From an uncultured Alphaproteobacteria bacterium (GTDB lineage Bacteria; Pseudomonadota; Alphaproteobacteria; HIMB59; GCA-002718135), in contig CABXJB010000003.1 of NCBI GenBank assembly GCA_902512415.1, positions 1 to 51,775 on the forward strand: DNA of 51,775 nucleotides. Direction: 5' to 3'. A program made the translations under genes and the position numbers. Shown here one piece after another: positions 6,415 to 49,146 of this stretch (position 1 is its first letter; each line of letters starts with the position of its first letter). Under the pieces are notes generated by a model. The model made no database searches. It was not told the origin of the DNA and saw nothing but the letters and a program-made list of their open reading frames with translations.

Positions 6415-7428
6415 TTAAATATTTAATACTGAACCTCTGTCTATAATTTCTGCTTTTGCTAGATAATTTTTATCTTTAATATTTAATTTTTTATCCATTA
6501 AGATACGGACAGCATTATAACCGAGATCATCATTTGGATGTGAAATTGAAGTCAATTCTGGATGAATTAAATTGCTTACTATCAAGCTGTCATAAGTGAT
6601 TATAGATAAATCTTTACCTATTTTTATATTCATTTTGCTACAAGCTTTTATCGCCCCTGCAGCAATATATTCAGTACAACAAATTAAAGCAGTAATTTTT
6701 TTTTGTTTTTTTAATAATTTAATAATGACATCTCTGCTAATTTCAGGATCATTTCTTTCTATTTCAAAATAGTAATTTTTATTTATCTTTTGGTTCTTTT
6801 CTTTTAAAAAATCAAAATAAGCCTCCATTCTTTGATAAGCAAAATTGAATTTTTTATTTATATTAATAAAAGCTATCTCTTTATGATTTTTTTTAATCAA
6901 ATGTTCTAATATTATTTTCATACTTTGATGGTTGTCAAGATCAACCCAAGCATAATTTTTTAGATTTTGAGTTCTTCCCCAAGCAATAAAATTAATGTTA
7001 TGTTTTTTTAAAAGCGGTATTCTCTTATCTTTAATTGCTAAATCTCTTATTATTATATTCTTTACTTTTAATTCAATTATTAATTTTTTATAAGCATCCA
7101 TCTCTTCTTTTTCACTTTTTACTAATAGCATTGAAAATTGAATATTTTCTTCATCCATTGCATTTTTCATGCCTGATAAAAATTGAATAAAAGAAGTATG
7201 ATTGAGAGGTGAATAATTTAATCCATATAAAGGAATAACGATGCCTAAGTTATTGGGATTTCTTGATGCCAATCCTGATGCAAAAGGGTTAGGCTTATAA
7301 TTGTATTTTTTTGCATATTTTCTTATTTTTTCTTTAGTTTTCTGACTTACATCTAAATGATTGTGCAGCCCTCTGGATACAGTTGTGATCGATAAATTAA
7401 GCTTCTTTGCTAATTCTTTAATATTCAT
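6415..7428 (-). CDS. LacI family transcriptional regulator (AglR-like)
   Basis: HTH MNIKELAKKLNLSITTVSRGL, YKPN hinge and RGS C-terminus. Start moved to ATG 7428. Divergent from aglE. Confidence 0.92.
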   Translation of the reverse strand: MNIKELAKKLNLSITTVSRGLHNHLDVSQKTKEKIRKYAKKYNYKPNPFASGLASRNPNNLGIVIPLYGLNYSPLNHTSFIQFLSGMKNAMDEENIQFSMLLVKSEKEEMDAYKKLIIELKVKNIIIRDLAIKDKRIPLLKKHNINFIAWGRTQNLKNYAWVDLDNHQSMKIILEHLIKKNHKEIAFININKKFNFAYQRMEAYFDFLKEKNQKINKNYYFEIERNDPEISRDVIIKLLKKQKKITALICCTEYIAAGAIKACSKMNIKIGKDLSIITYDSLIVSNLIHPELTSISHPNDDLGYNAVRILMDKKLNIKDKNYLAKAEIIDRGSVLNI

Positions 7429-7488
7429 AAAAAAAACTAAATATCCTACAATTATACATTTTACAACCAATCCTACTATTTAAAATGA

Positions 7489-7510
7489 TTGACAACCAAA
7501 ACGTTTTGGT
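7489..7510 (+). promoter_or_regulatory. -35 element plus LacI-type operator upstream of aglE
   Basis: TTGACA (7489-7494) is immediately followed by a perfect 16-bp palindrome ACCAAAACGTTTTGGT (7495-7510) with a central CG. Confidence 0.8.
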
Positions 7511-7545
7511 AAATTATTAATATATAATTATTATCGAGGGGAAAA

Positions 7546-9902: not shown

Positions 9903-11041
9903 TGAATAAAGTTTCTCTTAGATCAATATTATCTCAGCTTTTATTATTATTATTTGTAATCATCTGGATACTCCCTACTTTTGGTCTTTTTATAAGTTCC
10001 CTAAGAGACAAAGATCTACTGGCAATCAGTGGATGGTGGAGCGCCCTTACAACTACAAATGTTAATGAAATTTATAGAATGCAGGGAATGGATGAGCAAA
10101 ATCAAGCAGATAATTATTTTATAATTACAGATAATTTATTTAAAAAAAATTCAGGTAAAAAAATAGAAACTTTTGGAATAACTTCAAAAAAAATTAATGA
10201 ATTTAAAGTTGGAGAAGTTGCTATCTTTAAAGACAAAAGTACAGTTACTGTAAATGAGGATGGTTTATATATCTGGAAATCTGAAAATGAATTTACAAAG
10301 AAAAAAGGTAAAAGGCTTTTTATTACAGCTTCAAGTCCGCCTTCATTTACATTTGATAACTATAAAGAAGTTTTGTTTCAAGAAGGTATAGGTCAAGCTT
10401 TTGTAAATACAATAGCAGTTGCTTTGCCATCAACCTTAATACCTTTAATCATTTGCTCTTATTTTGCTTATGCACTTACATGGATGCAATTTTTTGGAAG
10501 AGATACCTTACTTGCAATCATAATTGCATCTCTAGTAGTTCCTCTTCAAATGTCTCTAATACCAATATTGACAATTTATAATGATTTTGGGGCACTCTTT
10601 GGAGTCGCTGCAAAATCTTATCCTGGTGTGTGGATGGCCCATACAGGTTTTGGTTTGGCCTCAACAACATTTCTCTTGAGAAATTTTATAAAATCTCTTC
10701 CAAATGAAATGATGGAAGCTGCAAAAGTTGATGGCGCCTCACATTATGATATTTTTCTTCGTATTATAATACCTCTATCTATACCTGCTTTCGCTTCAAT
10801 TTTTATTTTACAATTTCTTTGGTGCTGGAATGATTTATTGGTAGGATTAGTTTTTTTAGACCAAGTACCTAGTGAAATAATTTTAACAGCCAAATTAAAA
10901 GAATTGCTTGGTTCTAGAGGGGAAAATTGGGAAATTTTAACAACTGGTGCTTTTGTATCCATGACGGTTCCATTATTCATATTCTTTGCATTACAAAGAT
11001 ATTTTATAAGAGGTTTAGTTGCAGGCTCAGTCAAAGGTTAA
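9902..11041 (+). CDS. aglG: Alpha-glucoside ABC transporter permease (MalG-type)
   Basis: SSLRDKDLLAISGWW, EAAKVDGA, FQ-like FLWCWNDLLV, and C-terminal RGLVAGSVKG. Confidence 0.88.
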   Translation: MNKVSLRSILSQLLLLLFVIIWILPTFGLFISSLRDKDLLAISGWWSALTTTNVNEIYRMQGMDEQNQADNYFIITDNLFKKNSGKKIETFGITSKKINEFKVGEVAIFKDKSTVTVNEDGLYIWKSENEFTKKKGKRLFITASSPPSFTFDNYKEVLFQEGIGQAFVNTIAVALPSTLIPLIICSYFAYALTWMQFFGRDTLLAIIIASLVVPLQMSLIPILTIYNDFGALFGVAAKSYPGVWMAHTGFGLASTTFLLRNFIKSLPNEMMEAAKVDGASHYDIFLRIIIPLSIPAFASIFILQFLWCWNDLLVGLVFLDQVPSEIILTAKLKELLGSRGENWEILTTGAFVSMTVPLFIFFALQRYFIRGLVAGSVKG

Positions 11042-11090
11042 AACAAGATATAATACTAGATTTTTCAACCAATATTGATATAAATTTAGC

Positions 11091-11111
11091 ATTGAATTAT
11101 GGTAATTCAAT
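11091..11111. promoter_or_regulatory. Palindromic putative operator upstream of the ABC ATPase gene
   Basis: ATTGAATTA-tgg-TAATTCAAT, a 9-bp perfect inverted repeat in the 100-bp aglG-aglK gap. Confidence 0.5.
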
Positions 11112-11141
11112 CACTTGTAAGATCGCTCAAAGGAGGATGAA

Positions 11142-12221
11142 GTGGCAGATATAAATATAAATACAGTTAATAAATATTATGGAGATGTTCACGTTATTAA
11201 AGACGTATCTCTAGATATTAAAAGTCAATCATTTACAGTTTTAGTTGGACCATCTGGTTGCGGTAAATCAACAATGTTAAGAATGATTGCGGGATTAGAA
11301 GATATTAATTCTGGAACTATTTCAATTGATGGTCAGGTTGTAAATGACTTACCGCCAAAACAAAGAAATATTGCTATGGTTTTTCAATCCTATGCTTTGT
11401 ATCCACATATGACAGTTTTTGATAATATGGCATTCGGACTTAAGCTAGAGAAAAGATCAAAAGATGAAATTAATGAACGTGTGCAAGAAGCGGCAAGAAT
11501 ACTTCAAATTGAAGATTACCTACATAGAAAACCTAAACAATTATCTGGCGGACAAAGACAAAGGGTTGCAATAGGTAGGGCTATAACTCGTAAACCAAAA
11601 GTGTTCTTATTTGATGAACCTTTATCAAATCTAGATGCTGCACTTCGTGTACAAATGCGTGTTGAGTTAGCAAAACTTCATGATCAACTTAATGCAACAA
11701 TGATTTATGTAACTCATGATCAAACAGAAGCAATGACACTCGCAAATGATATTGTCGTTCTGGATGAGGGTATAGTTTCACAAAACGGATCACCTATGGA
11801 TCTATACCATGATCCAAATAATCTATTTGTAGGGGGATTTATTGGTTCTCCTAAAATGAATTTTATCTCTACTAAAATTACAAGCAAAAGTAGTGATAAA
11901 ACAGAAGTAGATTTAATGGGATCTGCAAAAATCAGTATTCCAAAAACTTCAGCATCAGCCTCTGAAGGTGATGCGGTACAACTAGGTATTCGACCTGAGC
12001 ATCTAACTGTTAATGCGGATAGTGATGGAAGTTGGGAGAGTAAGGTGTTTGTTGTGGAAAAATTAGGATCAGGAACTTTCCTTTATCTTGAAAAAGAAGG
12101 TGAACCTCTGGTTGTTGAAACTGAGGGTGATTCAAATATTAAAGTTGGAGATACTGTAAAAGTTGGTTTTTCAGCTTCTCATTGTCATTTATTTGATAGC
12201 TCACAACAAGCTTTTAAGTAA
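11142..12221 (+). CDS. aglK: Sugar ABC transporter ATP-binding protein (MalK/AglK/MsiK family)
   Basis: GPSGCGKST, VFQSYALYPHM, LSGGQRQR, DEPLSNLD and TOBE tail GIRPEH. GTG start with AGGAGG SD. Confidence 0.92.
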   Translation: MADININTVNKYYGDVHVIKDVSLDIKSQSFTVLVGPSGCGKSTMLRMIAGLEDINSGTISIDGQVVNDLPPKQRNIAMVFQSYALYPHMTVFDNMAFGLKLEKRSKDEINERVQEAARILQIEDYLHRKPKQLSGGQRQRVAIGRAITRKPKVFLFDEPLSNLDAALRVQMRVELAKLHDQLNATMIYVTHDQTEAMTLANDIVVLDEGIVSQNGSPMDLYHDPNNLFVGGFIGSPKMNFISTKITSKSSDKTEVDLMGSAKISIPKTSASASEGDAVQLGIRPEHLTVNADSDGSWESKVFVVEKLGSGTFLYLEKEGEPLVVETEGDSNIKVGDTVKVGFSASHCHLFDSSQQAFK

Positions 12222-12238
12222 TAGAATCGTTTATTATC

Positions 12239-12264
12239 AATGCCCCCTAAATAAGGGGCATTTT
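12239..12264 (+). terminator. Rho-independent terminator after aglK
   Basis: AATGCCCC...GGGGCATT hairpin followed by Ts. Confidence 0.75.
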
Positions 12265-12319
12265 CCAAAGCGTTTCGGCCATTTATAGTCATAAGTTATA
12301 AATGATTTATAATAATATT

Positions 12320-12421
12320 AGAGCAGAGAGTTTCATATTATTTCCTCCTATAAGAAGTATTCCTCTTGTAAACTTCTCTGCTCTTGTAAGAAGAGAAGAT
12401 CGTGCACGAGGAATGCTTTTT
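12320..12421 (+). ncRNA. Candidate ~100-nt small RNA with anti-SD segments
   Basis: TATAAT at 12308-12313, long 3' hairpin 12355-12418 with two G-U pairs followed by Ts, alternative stem 12320-12333/12370-12384, and UUUCCUCCU at 12341-12349. Confidence 0.5.
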
Positions 12422-13571
12422 ATAATGGCTTAGTATCTGTCCAGTTTTTTGTGTTTTGCATTGATAAATAAGGATTAAGCTCTTCCATTACCTTCTCAGA
12501 TAATTTTCTATATGTTGTGAGCTTGCCTCCATATATGTTTAGCAAGGGTGAGTTTTTATCTTGAAGATTTAAATCAAACACATAGTCTCTCGTAACTTTT
12601 GATGCATCTCTAAAATCTTCAATTAAAGGTCTAATGCCTGAATATGTATCCACAATATCTTCTTTTGAAATTTGCTTAATAAAATGATGATTAATTGTGT
12701 TGATCAAATATATTTTTTCTTCATTAGAAATTAAAGGATTATCAGGAGTGTTTACATCCACTTCAGTGGTGCCAATAAGGGAATATTCATTCTTATAAGG
12801 AATGATAAAAACTATTCTATTATCATCATTTTGTAAAGTGAATGCTATTTCCTCATTATATAATTTTTTAGTAATTATATGACTGCCCCTAACCAATCTT
12901 ATGGATTTATTTGCATTAACCTCAATTACATTATTAACTATTTCATTAATCCAAGGACCAGCAGCATTAATTAAAATTTTAGATTTTATTGTTTCATTAT
13001 TATCTAGGGTAATTTCCCAACCTTCTTCTAATCTTTTAGCATTAATTACTTTTCTGTTCTCCACAATATTGGCGCCCATTTTTTTTGCATCATCAATATT
13101 CATCTCAACTAATTTCTTATCATCAACCTGTACATCGTAATATTGGAAGCCAACCGTAAATTGAGATTTTAAAATATTTGAATATTTTTTATTTAAATTA
13201 ATTTTTGATGATTTTGGAATTTTTGTTTTACCTCCGAGATTGTCATACAAAAACAAACCTAATCTGATCAATAATTTCGATCTTAATTTTTTTGTATACG
13301 GTATTACGAAAGGTAAAGGTTGTGTAATAGCTGGTGCAATTTTTGTAATAACTTCACGTTCTTTTAATGACTCTCTAACCAATTTAAACTCATAGTTCTC
13401 AAGATATCTTAAGCCACCATGAATTAATTTTGAAGACCATGATGAAGTAGCTGAACCAACCGTGCCCTTTTCTGCTAGAAAAACTTTTAACCCTCTACCC
13501 GAAGCATCTCTAGCAATGCCGGCTCCATTAATTCCTCCGCCAATTATAAATATATCAAATATTTGATTCAC
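12420..13571 (-). CDS. glpD: FAD-dependent glycerol-3-phosphate dehydrogenase (lacks C-terminal domain)
   Basis: GGGINGAGIARDA, SSKLIHGGLRYLE, SGIRPL and GGKLTTYR. Only 383 aa. Confidence 0.88.
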   Translation of the reverse strand: MNQIFDIFIIGGGINGAGIARDASGRGLKVFLAEKGTVGSATSSWSSKLIHGGLRYLENYEFKLVRESLKEREVITKIAPAITQPLPFVIPYTKKLRSKLLIRLGLFLYDNLGGKTKIPKSSKINLNKKYSNILKSQFTVGFQYYDVQVDDKKLVEMNIDDAKKMGANIVENRKVINAKRLEEGWEITLDNNETIKSKILINAAGPWINEIVNNVIEVNANKSIRLVRGSHIITKKLYNEEIAFTLQNDDNRIVFIIPYKNEYSLIGTTEVDVNTPDNPLISNEEKIYLINTINHHFIKQISKEDIVDTYSGIRPLIEDFRDASKVTRDYVFDLNLQDKNSPLLNIYGGKLTTYRKLSEKVMEELNPYLSMQNTKNWTDTKPL

Positions 13572-13577
13572 TAATTT

Positions 13578-14168
13578 TCATATAAACTTATCTACCTCTA
13601 ATTCAATTTTATTTGGATCTACTAAATGGATAGTGTTTAAATGTATGATTTTTGCCGCCTCAATATTTTCTAACTTATCATCGATAAAAACAGTTTTCTG
13701 TGGCATTAAATTAAAACGATTAATTGCAAGTTCATAAATGGCCATATCTGGCTTCATTAATTTATCTTCCCCAGAAATAAGGAGTCCATCAAATAATTTT
13801 AAAAAAGGATAGTCATCAATCATTCCTGCAAAGGTTTCAGCAGACCAATTGGATAAAACATAACATTCATAATTTTGTTTTTTTAGTTTTTCTAAAACGT
13901 TAATCGATAGATTAAATATCCCTCTGATCATTTTACGATGATTCATGTAATACATTTTAATTTCTCTCTCATAATGAGGAAATTTAGGTATTAATTCAGA
14001 CTCAGCCTCTTCAATAGTTCTTCCCGCATCCTGCTTGATATTCCATTCATCACTACAAACTTCAGTTAAAAAGTATTTACTTTCATCTTCTGTATCAAAA
14101 ATATCCTTATAAAAATGATGAGGATCCCAATCAAAAAATACACCACCTAGATCAAAAAGAAATTTCAT
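13578..14168 (-). CDS. HAD family phosphatase/hydrolase
   Basis: FDLGGV, LSNW, KP and FIDD motifs. Start moved to ATG 14168. Confidence 0.88.
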   Translation of the reverse strand: MKFLFDLGGVFFDWDPHHFYKDIFDTEDESKYFLTEVCSDEWNIKQDAGRTIEEAESELIPKFPHYEREIKMYYMNHRKMIRGIFNLSINVLEKLKKQNYECYVLSNWSAETFAGMIDDYPFLKLFDGLLISGEDKLMKPDMAIYELAINRFNLMPQKTVFIDDKLENIEAAKIIHLNTIHLVDPNKIELEVDKFI

Positions 14169-14218
14169 ATAAATAAATTTATTGTATAAATTAATAATTA
14201 CCAAAATTCATTATATTT

Positions 14219-15094
14219 ATGAAAATTGACATGATTACTTTTATTCAAGAAAAATTAATAATACTAACAAGCAAAAAATATTCAAAAAAATATATTTCGC
14301 AATACATTGTTCCAATAATCAACAATATATATTACTCAAAGGATAATAAATTCATCATCGCTGGACCTCAGGGCTCAGGTAAATCTACATTAGCTAAATT
14401 ATTTAAATTAGTTATCGAAAAATTTTATAAAAAAAAAGTCATGTTGCTCAGTATTGATGATTATTATTTAAGTAAAAGTCAAAGATTAATTTTATCAAAA
14501 AAAATACACCCACTTCTTCTTACACGTGGTGTACCAGGTACACATGATATCAAAGCATTAAAAGATCATGTAAATAAATTTAAAAATCAAAATTTTCCAA
14601 TTAACAGTCCCACTTTCAATAAATTAAAAGATGATATTAATAATAAAAGAAATATTTTTAATAATTCTGAGATATTATTATTGGAGGGTTGGTGTTGTGG
14701 TTCTAAGCCTATTACGAATCAATATCTTTTCAAAAATATCAATAGTTTAGAAAATACCTTTGATAAAAATAACAACTGGAGGAAATATTATAACTTTCTT
14801 CTACGAAATGAATATAAAAGTGTTTTTTCTTTGTTTGATAAGCAAATATATATTCAAGCACCTTCTTTTAAATATGTTCTAAAATGGAGATATCATCAAG
14901 AAAAGCGAAGTGCTTCTAAATCTAATAATAAAAATTTTATGAACATATCAGACTTACAAAAATTTATTCAACATTATGAAAAGTTAACAAAATGGATGAT
15001 CCAAACTATGCCAGCAAAATCAGATATTGTAATTAAGTTAGATAGTAATCAGAAAATAAAAAAGTTATTATTTAAGGTTGATAAATATCATTAA
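14219..15094 (+). CDS. P-loop kinase, D-glycerate 3-kinase (GLYK)-like
   Basis: GPQGSGKST, LSIDDYY, TRGVPGTHD, LEGWCCG and WRYHQE. Confidence 0.75.
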   Translation: MKIDMITFIQEKLIILTSKKYSKKYISQYIVPIINNIYYSKDNKFIIAGPQGSGKSTLAKLFKLVIEKFYKKKVMLLSIDDYYLSKSQRLILSKKIHPLLLTRGVPGTHDIKALKDHVNKFKNQNFPINSPTFNKLKDDINNKRNIFNNSEILLLEGWCCGSKPITNQYLFKNINSLENTFDKNNNWRKYYNFLLRNEYKSVFSLFDKQIYIQAPSFKYVLKWRYHQEKRSASKSNNKNFMNISDLQKFIQHYEKLTKWMIQTMPAKSDIVIKLDSNQKIKKLLFKVDKYH

Positions 15095-25899: not shown

Positions 25900-27111
25900 T
25901 TATTTGTATTCTTCCAATTCTTCAGCTGCTTCTGCAACTAAATCTACTGCATCACCCTCTCCAAGAATTGCTCCTTGAATCATTGAGTTCATTACAGTTT
26001 GGAATGCTTTATAATCAACAAATAGTGGCTCAGGTCCACCATCACCAATTGCATCAATAAACATCATCCAATAATCTTCATTGTATGGTGCAACTGCTCC
26101 AATTTGTGGATACTGCATTATTGGAGTCAAACCCCAATCAGTATCTAAGCTGTATTGAGAATCACCAGACGAAATGATGCTTGCTAACGCCATTGCATGC
26201 TCTTCAACACCAGTGTTATTGAAAACTGCAATACTATCTGTGATTAATAGAGTGCCTTGACTACCTTGTGGTCCAGCAGGAATTCTAACTGTACTTACAT
26301 TTAATCCTTCCTTATGCTGACCTCTTCCCCAAGGGCCATTAATATACATAGCAATTTTTTCATCATTAAATAGTTCAGTAAGTTGAGATCTCTCCCAAGC
26401 TAACGGACCTTCTTGAGCTACGTTAGCAAGTTTTCCATAAAATTCTAGAGCTTGAACTGTATTAGATGAATCAAGAGTTATCTCATTAGTTAAAGGATCA
26501 ATAACTTGCCCTCCATTACTATAAAGATAGTTTAAGAATTGGTGCATTGTATTATCAAAATCTTTACCTGCCAAACCAATGCCGGCAACTCCAGCAACAT
26601 TATTTGTCACAGCTTCTGCCATTGAATATAATTCATCCCATGTTTGAGGGCCTTCACAAGCAACACCTGCTTGCTCTAGTAAACCACAATTCATGAAAAG
26701 AGCTTTAGTTGAAAACGCGTGAGGGAAACCCCAAGTTTTGCCCATATGCGTAACTGTATTCAAAATACCTGGTTGATACATTGCTTGTTGAGAAGCAGGG
26801 ATATTTGTTTCTAAAATATGTCCATTCTCTGCAAGACCTTTTAAAGTTCTTGAACCTACATAAGAAAATGCAACTGGATCTCCTGCAATTGCAAGATTTA
26901 TTACTTTATCCTGACAAGTACCCCAAGGAACAGCCTCTAATGTTACATTAACACCAGGATTATTTTTCATATACTCATCAGCTATTTCTACGTAATTAGG
27001 TCTAAGATCACTACCACAAAAAACCCCATGCACATCAGCTGCAAAAGTTTTAAAACCAGTAAGTGAAAATATTGAAATTATAAGAAATGAAGATAGTTTT
27101 TTTAAATTCAT
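25900..27111 (-). CDS. Carbohydrate (probably amino-sugar) ABC transporter substrate-binding protein
   Basis: Signal peptide from MNLKKL with GGAGG SD. SBP_bac_1-like motifs TWDEL and AMYINGPW. Located in the nag cluster. Confidence 0.88.
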   Translation of the reverse strand: MNLKKLSSFLIISIFSLTGFKTFAADVHGVFCGSDLRPNYVEIADEYMKNNPGVNVTLEAVPWGTCQDKVINLAIAGDPVAFSYVGSRTLKGLAENGHILETNIPASQQAMYQPGILNTVTHMGKTWGFPHAFSTKALFMNCGLLEQAGVACEGPQTWDELYSMAEAVTNNVAGVAGIGLAGKDFDNTMHQFLNYLYSNGGQVIDPLTNEITLDSSNTVQALEFYGKLANVAQEGPLAWERSQLTELFNDEKIAMYINGPWGRGQHKEGLNVSTVRIPAGPQGSQGTLLITDSIAVFNNTGVEEHAMALASIISSGDSQYSLDTDWGLTPIMQYPQIGAVAPYNEDYWMMFIDAIGDGGPEPLFVDYKAFQTVMNSMIQGAILGEGDAVDLVAEAAEELEEYK

Positions 27112-27183
27112 ATTTCCTCCATTATTTATAAGACACATAACATTAAGTGGTAATATGGATCAAGGTTGTTTTACTGTTTAAGG

Positions 27184-47720: not shown

Positions 47721-49001
47721 TTACTGGTTATAAGCTTGTAATCCAAGCTCAGCTTTATCAATACCTGCTTTTTGAACGTGATCTGGGACACGTAACCAAC
47801 CAGCCATTTTCATAATATATGAAATAACATAGCCAGGTACAAATCCAGTTAAAGCCATTACAATGGCGCCAACTATTTGACCCGTTAGATTTGAAGCTGG
47901 AATTTCTCCTGCTGCTGGAAAGCCAGAAGCAAAAAGACCTACACACAACATACCTAAGATACCACAAACACCGTGAATTGATACCGCTCCTACACAGTCA
48001 TCAATTTTGAATGTGTTATGAAGCCAATTATTTGCAGGAATAATTACACACCCTGCAATTGTACCAAGAATAAATGCAAAGCCAGGATACCAAATATCAA
48101 GACCACCAGCACATATAAATATACCTGCTAGTCCACCTGACATCATCCAAAACGGATTTCCTTTACTCCACCAGAAAGCACCGATCATGCCTCCAGCTAG
48201 ACCCATCAAAGTATTGAATGCAAAAGAAGATAATGTAGCTGGTGCACCATAAATATTTACCCAACCTCCATAATCTGATCCTGCCCAAATTAAACAAGCT
48301 CCTAGGAATCCAAAGAAACCTACAATCAAAGTTAATAAACCAACAAAAGATAGAACTAAGCTATGACCTTCAAGATCATTTGCAGAGCCATCATCATTAT
48401 ATTTTCCTATTCTTGGACCTAGATTCAAGAGTACTCCAAACGCAAACAATCCTGCAACAGTATGAACACACCCTGCAGCTGCTACATCATGGAATCCCCA
48501 ACTAGTTACAAGCCATCCATCTGGATGCCATCCCCAAGAAGCTGCTAAAATCCAAACTACAGATCCTAAAACAACTGCTAGAAATACGAATGCACTAATT
48601 CTAATTCTTTCAATTACAGCTCCTGAAAAAATCGAAGCTGTTGTACATGCAAACAATGTAAATGCAGCCCAGAATACACCAGTAGCCTGGTCACTTAGCA
48701 TTGGTCCCATTGAAACATTCCATGGAACTCCGTATCCTTCTAAATCAATAGGTACAAATCCTCCTGGAAAAGCTAGGTAGATCCACCATCCAAATAGCCA
48801 AAATGTTGGGATCATAAATGCAAATGCTAATAAATTTTTAACACCTGAAGAAACAGCGTTTTGCATTCTTGTAGCGCCTACTTCATACATTAAGAAACCA
48901 ACGTGAATAATAATCATAAGTCCTGTACACCACCAATAGTAAGCTTCCATGCCCACGTTTGCTTGTGTGGTGACAAAAACATTTAATTCTTCCAACGTCA
49001 T
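47721..49001 (-). CDS. amt: Ammonium transporter (Amt) family protein, atypical (possible methylamine transporter)
   Basis: SGAVIERIR, HDVAAAGCVH, LGPRIGKY and IDDCVGAVSIHG. AGGAGG SD. Confidence 0.92.
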   Translation of the reverse strand: MTLEELNVFVTTQANVGMEAYYWWCTGLMIIIHVGFLMYEVGATRMQNAVSSGVKNLLAFAFMIPTFWLFGWWIYLAFPGGFVPIDLEGYGVPWNVSMGPMLSDQATGVFWAAFTLFACTTASIFSGAVIERIRISAFVFLAVVLGSVVWILAASWGWHPDGWLVTSWGFHDVAAAGCVHTVAGLFAFGVLLNLGPRIGKYNDDGSANDLEGHSLVLSFVGLLTLIVGFFGFLGACLIWAGSDYGGWVNIYGAPATLSSFAFNTLMGLAGGMIGAFWWSKGNPFWMMSGGLAGIFICAGGLDIWYPGFAFILGTIAGCVIIPANNWLHNTFKIDDCVGAVSIHGVCGILGMLCVGLFASGFPAAGEIPASNLTGQIVGAIVMALTGFVPGYVISYIMKMAGWLRVPDHVQKAGIDKAELGLQAYNQ

Positions 49002-49091
49002 TTTGTCCTCCTTACGAGTTTATTTCAAAACAACCGCTTAACTCATTAAGTTTAAGGGAAATGAAAAAGGCTAAAAGAAAAAACTATAACT

Positions 49092-49146
49092 GCGTTCCTT
49101 CGGTTTTAACCTACTTCCGTCTCACTCAAATTATGAGATGAACGAT
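49092..49146 (-). ncRNA. Glutamine riboswitch (glnA RNA motif)
   Basis: The minus strand reads AUCGUUCAUCUCAUAAUUUGAGUGAGACGGAAGUAGGUUAAAACCGAAGGAACGC: P1 CGUUC/GAACG, P2 UCUCA/UGAGA, GGAAGUA, P3 GGUU/AACC, GAAG. Located upstream of amt. Confidence 0.88.

Follow-up and report, generated by a model that had tools for sequence, protein, structure and literature searches.

A conserved RNA element with anti-Shine-Dalgarno motifs behind a sugar-transporter ATPase gene in the AEGEAN-169/HIMB59 branch: a candidate small RNA gene

Does a gap of 198 bp between two convergent genes harbour a regulatory RNA, or does it merely contain the terminator of one of them? The question is raised by positions 12222-12419 of a contig of an uncultured alphaproteobacterium of the HIMB59 lineage (CABXJB010000003.1 of assembly GCA_902512415.1, positions 1 to 51,775; this whole stretch is called the window below). 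An initial annotation, made from the letters alone, had seen in this gap an undescribed small RNA (sRNA), the free 5' arm of which is antisense to the translation starts of solute-binding proteins (SBPs), and had named the terminator of the neighbouring glpD gene as the alternative. Our analysis leads to the following answer. As its most fitting reading we take a new sRNA gene of the anti-Shine-Dalgarno (anti-SD) kind, restricted to one family, that is tied to the gene of a sugar-transporter ATPase and, in part of the family, to its LacI-type repressor. The alternative of a mere glpD terminator is rejected.

The convergent gap and its TATAAT box (12308-12313, + strand) are found exactly where they had been reported. 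Behind the box, the + strand can adopt two folds. In the first one, a helix here called P1 is formed by AGAGCAGAGAGUUU (12320-12333), which likely represents the 5' end of the RNA, and AAACUUCUCUGCUCU (12370-12384); the helix is evident from an inverted repeat (I4), in which 12320-12329 and 12375-12384 are 100% complementary, from pair counts and from RNAalifold. P1 encloses an almost invariant loop, UUUCAUAUUAUUUCCUCCUAUAAGAAGUAUUCCUCUU. The loop comprises a first seed, CAUAUUAUUUCCUCCU (12334-12349), which is the complement of an AUG (12334-12336), a 7-nt spacer and AGGAGG (anti-SD, 12341-12349), and an inner hairpin, AUAAGA/UCUUGU (12350-12369), which RNAalifold recovered from a MAFFT alignment and which in turn encloses a second anti-SD-like motif, UUCCUCU (12360-12366). 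The second fold, H2, is a long terminator hairpin (12349-12424, + strand), known from predicted folds and from its conservation in genus g1. It forms at the expense of P1 and the inner hairpin; the 3' arm of P1 doubles as the 5' half of its inner stem. In H2, 12355-12370 pairs with 12403-12418 at 15 of 16 positions, with G-U pairs at 12358/12415 and 12369/12404; the inner stem CUUCUCU/AGAGAAG (inverted repeat I6) is present, and a U run follows on the + strand (12417-12421), which overlaps the glpD stop codon. The initial description of this hairpin and of the stem that excludes it thus stands in every detail. All that is reported in the following on how the element is conserved, on its strand and structure, its promoter box and operator, and its gene neighbours was established in silico.

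The conservation is striking. A 701-bp query across the gap yielded whole-gap matches in 18 genomes of the same genus. In 19 aligned loci of that genus a core of about 60 nt is near identical, the flanking coding DNA being only 70-84% identical, and the core remains nearly identical at 61 loci of 61 genomes while the intergenic and even the coding flanks diverge, which takes the feature beyond chance. The conserved block reads (G/A)GGCAGAG(G/A)G-UU(U)-CAUAUUAUUUCCUCCUAUAAGAAGUAUUCCUCUU(A/G)UAAA-ACUU(U/C)UCUGC(C/U)C. The seed is invariant in alignment A1 and accessible in the predicted folds; among the 27 printed matches of a covariance model, R1, it is kept in 25 and missing from the two weakest ones (L085 and L086). 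L082, L076 and L074, as well as genus g9, lack its CAU.

R1 finds the element in 93 of the 116 genomes of the window's family (f1), mostly as one copy per genome; many of the negative genomes are only 53-77% complete. By genus, the matches amount to 84/104 in g1, 5/5 in g7, 1/1 each in g3, g5 and g4 (the latter weak) and 0/1 each in g6, g8 and g9. In a sample of the entire order, 68 of 79 genomes of f1 were matched and none of the 71 of the sister family f2. The latter has cultured members of the HIMB59 type, whereas we know of no cultured member of f1. In genus g9 (L230, G131) a divergent copy that R1 misses was found by eye about 100-200 nt after the ATPase gene. It has a P1 with G-U pairs, AAUUUCCUCC and only the first of the anti-SD motifs; a short hairpin, UCUCUC...GAGAGA, there re-uses the 3' arm of P1, as does H2 in g1. 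In genus g6 a different gene sits at the element's place. A strict core pattern, run against one genome of each of 185,579 species, matched 84 stretches, and the 80 listed are all from records entitled uncultured alphaproteobacterial, "Proteobacteria bacterium", "Pelagibacteraceae bacterium", "HIMB59-..." or "MarineAlpha5". By these titles the lineage is the AEGEAN-169/HIMB59 branch, which has also been named SAR11 subclade V (PMC10308909).

Some candidates had to be discarded. L085 (E 0.0036) is apparently coding DNA, lacks the motifs and lies 0.5 kb upstream of a same-strand ATPase paralogue of 37% identity; L086 (genus g4, E 0.006), despite its P1-like arms and UUUCCUCC, stands without an ATPase gene in its vicinity. 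A repeat or mobile element is not at issue, the own genome containing one copy and the other BLAST hits covering merely 16-22 nt. Nor is a small protein of the + strand, the 43-codon open reading frame (ORF) at 12302-12433 being broken by indels between the clades.

P1 is also conserved as a helix. It is paired to 98.4% in 61 sequences, 37 of them distinct, as compared with 48-62% in slid controls; none of 500 shuffles reaches its covariation score, and four of its pairs change on both sides: G-C/A-U (column 6/73), C-G/U-A, G-C/G-U/A-U and G-U/A-U/U-A. From a plain MAFFT alignment of 16 sequences, RNAalifold recovered P1 and a 6-bp inner hairpin independently. With a covarying P1 and a model that is matched throughout most of the family, the reading as a glpD terminator only, to which a lack of structural conservation would have led back, fails. 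The strand, too, can be read from the variation. Columns 12-14 of P1 vary between G-U, A-U or G-C against a mostly constant U, and H2 varies from U-A to U-G; such wobble changes fit the + strand only, because on the - strand they would become A-C mismatches. The + strand of 12318-12425 folds with -36.3 kcal/mol (z = -4.9), which none of 200 shuffles equals, the - strand of the same segment with -27.8 kcal/mol (z = -2.7).

To which gene does the element belong? On its upstream side ends a gene for a MalK/UgpC-like ATP-binding cassette (ABC) ATPase (11142-12221, + strand), the last one of a cluster of LacI, SBP, two-permease and ATPase genes; on the other side ends, in the opposite direction, a gene for a GlpD-like flavin adenine dinucleotide (FAD) oxidoreductase (12420-13571, - strand; stop codon 12420-12422). 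Of 20 divergent loci that were fetched, 18 have the ATPase gene as the direct upstream neighbour of the element, on the same strand and about 100 nt away, with an amino-acid identity of 84-98%; the two others are the weak hits L085 and L086, which were excluded from the syntenic copies. On the downstream side, g1 has glpD (- strand), whereas g7, g5 and g3 have a gene for a HAD hydrolase (- strand), and L075 and L077 a gpsA-like gene for 341 amino acids (+ strand). This neighbour runs towards the element in 16 of the 18 syntenic loci; only in L075 and L077 does it share the strand of the element. Since the downstream gene varies and the ATPase gene stays, the element belongs to the 3' side of the latter, not to glpD. 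It also is more than a glpD terminator, because its core persists where glpD is absent, i.e., in g7, g5, g3 and in L075/L077.

The ATPase gene is followed by a terminator-like hairpin of its own (12239-12262, + strand; inverted repeat I3), GCCCCC-loop-GGGGC and then AUUUUCC, which would set the ATPase transcript apart from the element. The hairpin is found at the same position in relatives; in L077 and genus g7 it is a clear 13-bp stem followed by a U run (U6). In the largest clade of g1 the U run comes 9 nt after the hairpin, and termination of the ATPase transcript may therefore leak there.

The sequence further suggests that the element is transcribed from its own promoter. The TATAAT box ends 6 nt before A12320 and is paired with TAGTCA at a spacing of 16 nt (10 of 12 consensus matches), although such a call of the consensus scan alone means little, since 4 sites were found where 3.8 are expected; the -35 region is weak. 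In most of 60 distinct copies, read by eye, a hexamer TAnnAT is located 6-7 nt before P1 (-12..-7 or -13..-8), with T1, A2, A5 and T6 fixed and positions 3-4 as well as the next six bases variable, which is the pattern to be expected of a -10 box. A possible second -10 box, TATAGT (12284-12289, + strand), goes with TTTCCA (12262-12267) at a spacing of 16 nt (9 of 12 matches).

The initial annotation had called the RNA sugar-responsive, and there is something to this in part of the family. A perfect, operator-like palindrome of 14 bp, CCAAAACGTTTTGG (7496-7509), lies between the TTGACA and the -10 box of the SBP-permease-ATPase operon and adjoins the divergent gene of the LacI family (6415-7470, - strand); it is the single perfect occurrence in the assembly of 925 kb. 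A copy with 2 mismatches, CCAAAGCGTTTCGG (12265-12278), is seen before the element, about 30 nt upstream of TATAAT and centred about 48 nt upstream of 12320; relatives have it in the same place with 0-1 mismatch. It possibly occupies the spacer of the second promoter, TTTCCA-16-TATAGT, as far as the sequence can tell. In genus g7, L075 and L077 the palindrome abuts the -10 box of the element, between this and a -35-like box, and G011 likewise has a copy beside the element. At up to 1 mismatch a genome has only 1-4 copies. As a mere hairpin the palindrome makes little sense: the stem would have just 5 A-U-rich pairs, and the identical 14-mer is found in a promoter spacer beside a LacI gene at 7 of 7 printed sites. 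CCAAAACGTTTTGG is a clean candidate for the operator of a LacI-type repressor with 1-4 sites per genome. Sugar control of the element is thus suggested by its promoter in several clades, but not in the largest one, which lacks the palindrome. As an observation apart from the element, the module TTGACA-A-CCAAAACGTTTTGG-TAAAAT (7489-7520 in the window) precedes binding-protein operons beside a divergent LacI-family gene; the same -35/operator/-10 arrangement was met at six further SBP operons (L121, L122, L123, L125, L126 and L128) of four f1 genomes and one f2 genome.

Which of the two folds would prevail? In the window, the H2 fold has -36.1 kcal/mol and the P1-enforced one -26.9 kcal/mol; in the largest clade the values are -32.9 and -18.8 kcal/mol. 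H2 is thus favoured over any P1-enforced fold by about 9-14 kcal/mol, yet in the nascent RNA P1 can form first (-18.1 kcal/mol). The finished RNA, according to these models and in line with the initial annotation, would expose GAGCAGAGAGUUUCAUAUUAUUUCCUCC at its 5' end, with about the first 27 nt single-stranded. H2 is found in most of genus g1, where it is paired to 90.8% with one compensatory pair; it is absent from L076 and L078, both of which have glpD, and from genera g7, g5 and g3. The shape shared by the entire family is P1 around a loop of about 36 nt; in L072-L075 P1 is directly followed by a U-rich run.

We therefore envisage, without claiming more than an even chance for the whole of it, a separately transcribed regulatory RNA of the + strand that works independently of Hfq, is gated by sugar in part of the family and pairs with strong ribosome-binding sites. 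Transcription would start around 12320 from the -10 box at 12308-12313, directly behind the ATPase terminator, and yield an RNA of about 70-105 nt. In genus g1, H2, ending in the U run 12417-12421, would replace P1 as terminator and free the 5' terminal 27 nt or so. The RNA would then pair with a few mRNAs having strong SD sites and lower their translation in the absence of Hfq; the translation of nutrient-binding proteins would probably be dampened. Where the promoter bears the LacI-type operator, the RNA would be made together with the neighbouring sugar ABC transporter. That the RNA is transcribed, that it acts in trans, and which mRNAs it targets, are what we infer.

The independence of Hfq relates to a search with the Pfam model, which matched the control genomes and found Hfq in none of 31 relatives, among which 10 have a completeness of 90% or more, nor in any of the five most complete f1 genomes (90-96%). 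ProQ was equally missing from these five, the controls again being matched.

What could such an RNA bind? Its free sequence is the exact complement of UAGGAGGAAAUAAUAUGAAA, i.e., of AGGAGG, a 7-nt spacer and AUGAAA, as had been proposed, and a second CCUC motif follows. Both of the matches initially reported to SBP starts are real: 10 nt, TATTTCCTCC (27111-27120), at the start of the SBP gene 25900-27111, and 8 + 6 nt at 709-724. Over 918 start regions, the 20 best duplexes average -19.1 kcal/mol, whereas 30 control RNAs with shuffled flanks and a fixed CCUCC yield -17.05 ± 0.90 kcal/mol, and none of the 30 reaches the value of the RNA; 32 sites have -16 kcal/mol or better, the control mean being 14.7. 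SBPs, from six Pfam families, make up 9 of the 24 best sites. Of the 919 ORFs of genome G000 only 23 have a 6-mer SD (AGGAGG or GGAGGA) at the right distance, which renders CCUCC selective in this genome; a 5-mer SD is seen at 75 ORFs, as compared with 51 in control windows inside genes. Among the 23 strong-SD genes, some 10 encode a signal-peptide-like N-terminus and are likely periplasmic binding proteins. The ATPase gene itself, with the SD site AAGGAGGAUGAAGUG, is among the 23.

SBPs thus figure among the best sites, but a specific set of targets did not emerge. Neither of the two best targets has kept its complementarity across the relatives. The best-scoring one, with 19 of 20 nt, is an SBP of the OpuAC type; with its complementarity gone in the largest clade, it was dismissed as a conserved target. 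The second one, an SBP of 474 amino acids, was dismissed as primary target: it is present in 4 of 34 genomes of the genus, and its start is less complementary than that in the sister family, which lacks the RNA. One long antisense target is ruled out by a search of 5 genomes of the genus with the 22-mer complement of the seed (up to 3 mismatches), which returned only the element itself and two sites that are not starts. A duplex scan of the whole window with a 69-nt RNA yielded loose, uninformative duplexes only. Since no specific target set emerged, the notion that the RNA sets a hierarchy among the transporters, as the initial annotation had it, is again something we infer. The 474-aa protein (L216-L228) deserves a remark of its own. 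It has no Pfam or NCBIfam match at 1e-5 and is 93% identical between f1 and f2, with a start region that differs between the two families; being present in only 4/34 and 9/40 of the genomes searched, it looks like a flexible, exchanged gene.

Several observations weigh against the proposed RNA or at least against its specificity. One position of the inner hairpin is A-C on the + strand and G-U on the - strand, and so favours the latter. The covariation stems from a small number of independent changes, all between closely related genomes, and the model had served to fit alignment A3. The palindrome, as mentioned, is absent from the element in the largest clade of g1. Metatranscriptome contigs of four out of 19 runs have pieces on 10500-10767 and 11036-12241, i.e., on the end of the permease genes and on the ATPase gene, only; no piece lies on 12242-14500, hence none on the element, and coverage ceases in the bin 12108-12241, where the last piece listed ends at 12176. 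These contigs carry no information on strand or ends, and the result neither supports nor refutes the RNA. As to the targets, the top 30 sites include 11 signal-peptide-like proteins, the controls 7.6 ± 1.9 with a maximum of 11, which is a weak excess. The start of the OpuAC-type SBP is weak and not complementary in three RNA-bearing genomes of the largest clade, and strong in a genus without any R1 match at E ≤ 0.01. The longest complement of all, 26 nt with -37 kcal/mol, is the start of the 474-aa SBP in f2, where the RNA is missing, and the three readable ones of the four orthologues in the window's family pair less well (-16 to -21 kcal/mol), the fourth locus (G091) being cut at a contig end and excluded from this comparison. 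By its sequence, the seed looks like a mirror of the ideal start region of the lineage rather than of one gene, and the targets look generic, not specific.

Among the other explanations, the one that fares best, although we consider it unlikely, takes the element as a cis-acting part of the 3' untranslated region (3' UTR) of the ATPase mRNA. Upon read-through, the anti-SD loop would fold back onto an SD of its own mRNA or operon, in the way of the icaR 3' UTR, or it would be cut off as an sRNA derived from the 3' UTR. The constant place of the element, always about 100 nt after the ATPase gene and on its strand, would be accounted for at once, as would the rare strong SD of this very gene; the 9-nt distance between hairpin and U run would even provide the leak in the largest clade. 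With the ATPase start, however, the element can pair over the 7-nt AGGAGGA only, a hairpin stands between gene and element (clear, with U6, in L077 and genus g7), and directly before P1 we find the conserved -10 box and, in some clades, a full -35/operator/-10 module.

Still less probable is a structural switch that binds a protein or a small ligand, with P1 or H2 deciding between a stop at 12421 and an antisense run into glpD. That the two helices are mutually exclusive and both conserved in g1, that the hairpin of genus g9 again makes use of the 3' arm of P1, and that the near-invariant loop is conserved like a binding site, can be read in this sense. But L076, L078, g7, g5 and g3 have nothing to switch, since H2 is missing and P1 is followed by U-rich sequence; the gene to be switched differs among the clades; H2 is ahead in stability by the 9-14 kcal/mol given above; and no known riboswitch family matches.

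The - strand could alternatively be the functional one, be it as a decoy ribosome-binding site with an ORF of 9-10 codons (MKLSALILL) at the end of the glpD transcript or as the relic of the 5' end of an SBP gene. We rate this lower again. The - strand does read AGGAGGAAAUAAUAUG, a perfect SD plus AUG, it has a stretch of 24 nt identical to the start region of the 474-aa SBP in the sister family, and the mentioned position of the inner hairpin fits it better. Yet the AUG is lost in L082, L076, L074 and genus g9, a 1-nt indel shifts the frame between the clades so that the peptide is not conserved (MKLSA... versus MNPLP...), the G-U pairs of P1 and H2 turn into A-C mismatches, the neighbour on the - strand varies whereas that on the + strand is constant, and a neutral relic would not stay invariant. 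A terminator only, of glpD or bidirectional, with all the rest being chance in an A+T-rich spacer, may rely on the strength of H2, which stands between convergent genes and is preceded by an A run and followed by a U run. It can practically be dismissed, as the invariant part is P1 with its loop and not H2, the element also occurs without glpD and H2, the U run belongs to the + strand, and a hairpin of its own already follows the ATPase gene.

What would the preferred reading, an sRNA with its own promoter, mean? The usual picture of SAR11-type ocean bacteria is one of very few regulators, much of the work being left to riboswitches. Tentatively, and with distinctly less confidence than in the RNA as such, we consider the possibility that the element represents the first trans-acting sRNA regulon in SAR11-like streamlined bacterioplankton (AEGEAN-169/HIMB59): an Hfq-independent "anti-start-site" RNA that is switched on by a LacI-type repressor together with a sugar ABC importer. 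If so, the RNA would selectively throttle the small class of strong-SD genes, the selectivity following from the rarity of such sites, and this class includes some 10 SBP-like genes and the shared MalK-type ATPase. Uptake capacity would be reallocated when sugar appears. In g1, the alternative of P1 and H2 would add a second layer, be it exposure of the seed or antisense read-through into glpD. The way in which abundant ocean cells choose among dissolved nutrients would then comprise a post-transcriptional layer, and here an sRNA would exert its control with neither Hfq nor ProQ. In any case, the element is more conserved, family-wide, than the neighbouring coding DNA, and R1 together with the fixed position behind a malK-like gene provides a marker for stranded metatranscriptomes of the ocean.

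The neighbourhood offers some observations of its own. The GlpD-like protein has 383 amino acids and aligns to positions 4-392 of a glycerol-3-phosphate dehydrogenase model of 508 positions; as the match stops there, the protein appears to be devoid of the usual C-terminal part. In L075 (2209-3234) and L077 (2156-3181), from two genomes of the window's genus, the gene that replaces glpD, on the opposite strand, has by eye the look of a glycerol-3-phosphate dehydrogenase dependent on nicotinamide adenine dinucleotide (NAD), i.e., is gpsA-like. In L079 (59-1984) a LacI-family gene adjoins the ATPase gene divergently, with no SBP or permease genes between them, an arrangement in which the ATPase may stand alone and energise several transporters as a shared subunit. 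Right behind the ATPase stop (12222-12232 in the window) the genera have a preserved heptamer, AGAATCG, in common. It makes up the 5' half of a long terminator stem (GAAUCGGUAU...AUACCGAUUC plus U run) in genus g7 and L077; in the window's genus it is retained although the partner half of the stem is gone.

Is the RNA really undescribed? A search of the entire window with Rfam 15 returned a glutamine riboswitch only (RF01739, aptamer at 49089-49146 on the - strand, 68 bits at a threshold of 35), upstream of an ORF of 426 amino acids (47721-49001). For 12150-12500 and 10950-12450 (E ≤ 5), the same database gave nothing but chance-level hits far below the gathering threshold, the best ones being Phe_leader on the ATPase terminator (26 bits versus 55) and miRNA models on H2. 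The main text of the AEGEAN-169 genome paper contains none of the words sRNA, riboswitch or noncoding, and full-text searches on small RNAs of Pelagibacter/SAR11, supplementary files being outside the scope, returned no description of the element. These searches agree with the initial annotation. The kinship to AbcR and GcvB, to which it had pointed, by contrast, shrinks to an analogy, as there is no Rfam match and no Hfq was found.

The analogy is nevertheless instructive. The enterobacterial GcvB represses multiple targets, the mRNAs of periplasmic binding proteins, with a very conserved seed. This seed is G/U-rich, addresses C/A-rich sites and needs Hfq; the seed of the present element differs in being a direct complement of SD and AUG, and there is no relation by sequence or in Rfam. 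The AbcR family (alpha-r15), which is part of Rfam, comes closer. Its members AbcR1 and AbcR2 of the Rhizobiales (Agrobacterium, Sinorhizobium, Brucella) are likewise alphaproteobacterial, and they share with the element two anti-SD modules and SBP start sites as predicted or proven targets. In the AbcR sRNAs the pyrimidine-rich modules are called M1 and M2, and AbcR1 is depicted with three hairpins, single-stranded UCCC motifs and Hfq dependence (PMC4152367). The element, by contrast, is one stem with a large loop, to which H2 is added in genus g1; its motifs are CCUCC and CCUC, and no Hfq was found in its lineage.

An association with malK-type genes of sugar-transporter ATPases is also known from the motifs malK-I, malK-II and malK-III, which are placed in the 5' UTR next to the malK SD (PMC5737381, Weinberg et al. 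2017). They share the association with the element, which, unlike them, comes after the stop codon of the malK-like gene. The usual marks of a riboswitch or attenuator leader are not seen either; alternative folds do exist in g1, but in 16 of 18 syntenic loci the element faces a convergent gene. The icaR 3' UTR of Staphylococcus aureus has an anti-SD pyrimidine motif downstream of the coding region that acts within one mRNA; our element differs from it by the promoter-like box in front and by a complementarity to the ATPase start of only 7 nt.

Finally, sRNAs are known to arise from the 3' ends of transporter or metabolic operons, e.g., MalH (malEFG), SroC (gltIJKL) and DapZ (dapB). They are unrelated in sequence, and the element differs by the terminator-like hairpin and, in some clades, the LacI-type operator between gene and RNA, as well as by a lineage in which no Hfq was found. 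The setting, however, is the same: the element directly follows a transporter gene on the same strand and, like DapZ, apparently has its own promoter. By analogy with these RNAs, a link from a sugar regulon to the control of other uptake proteins appears plausible.

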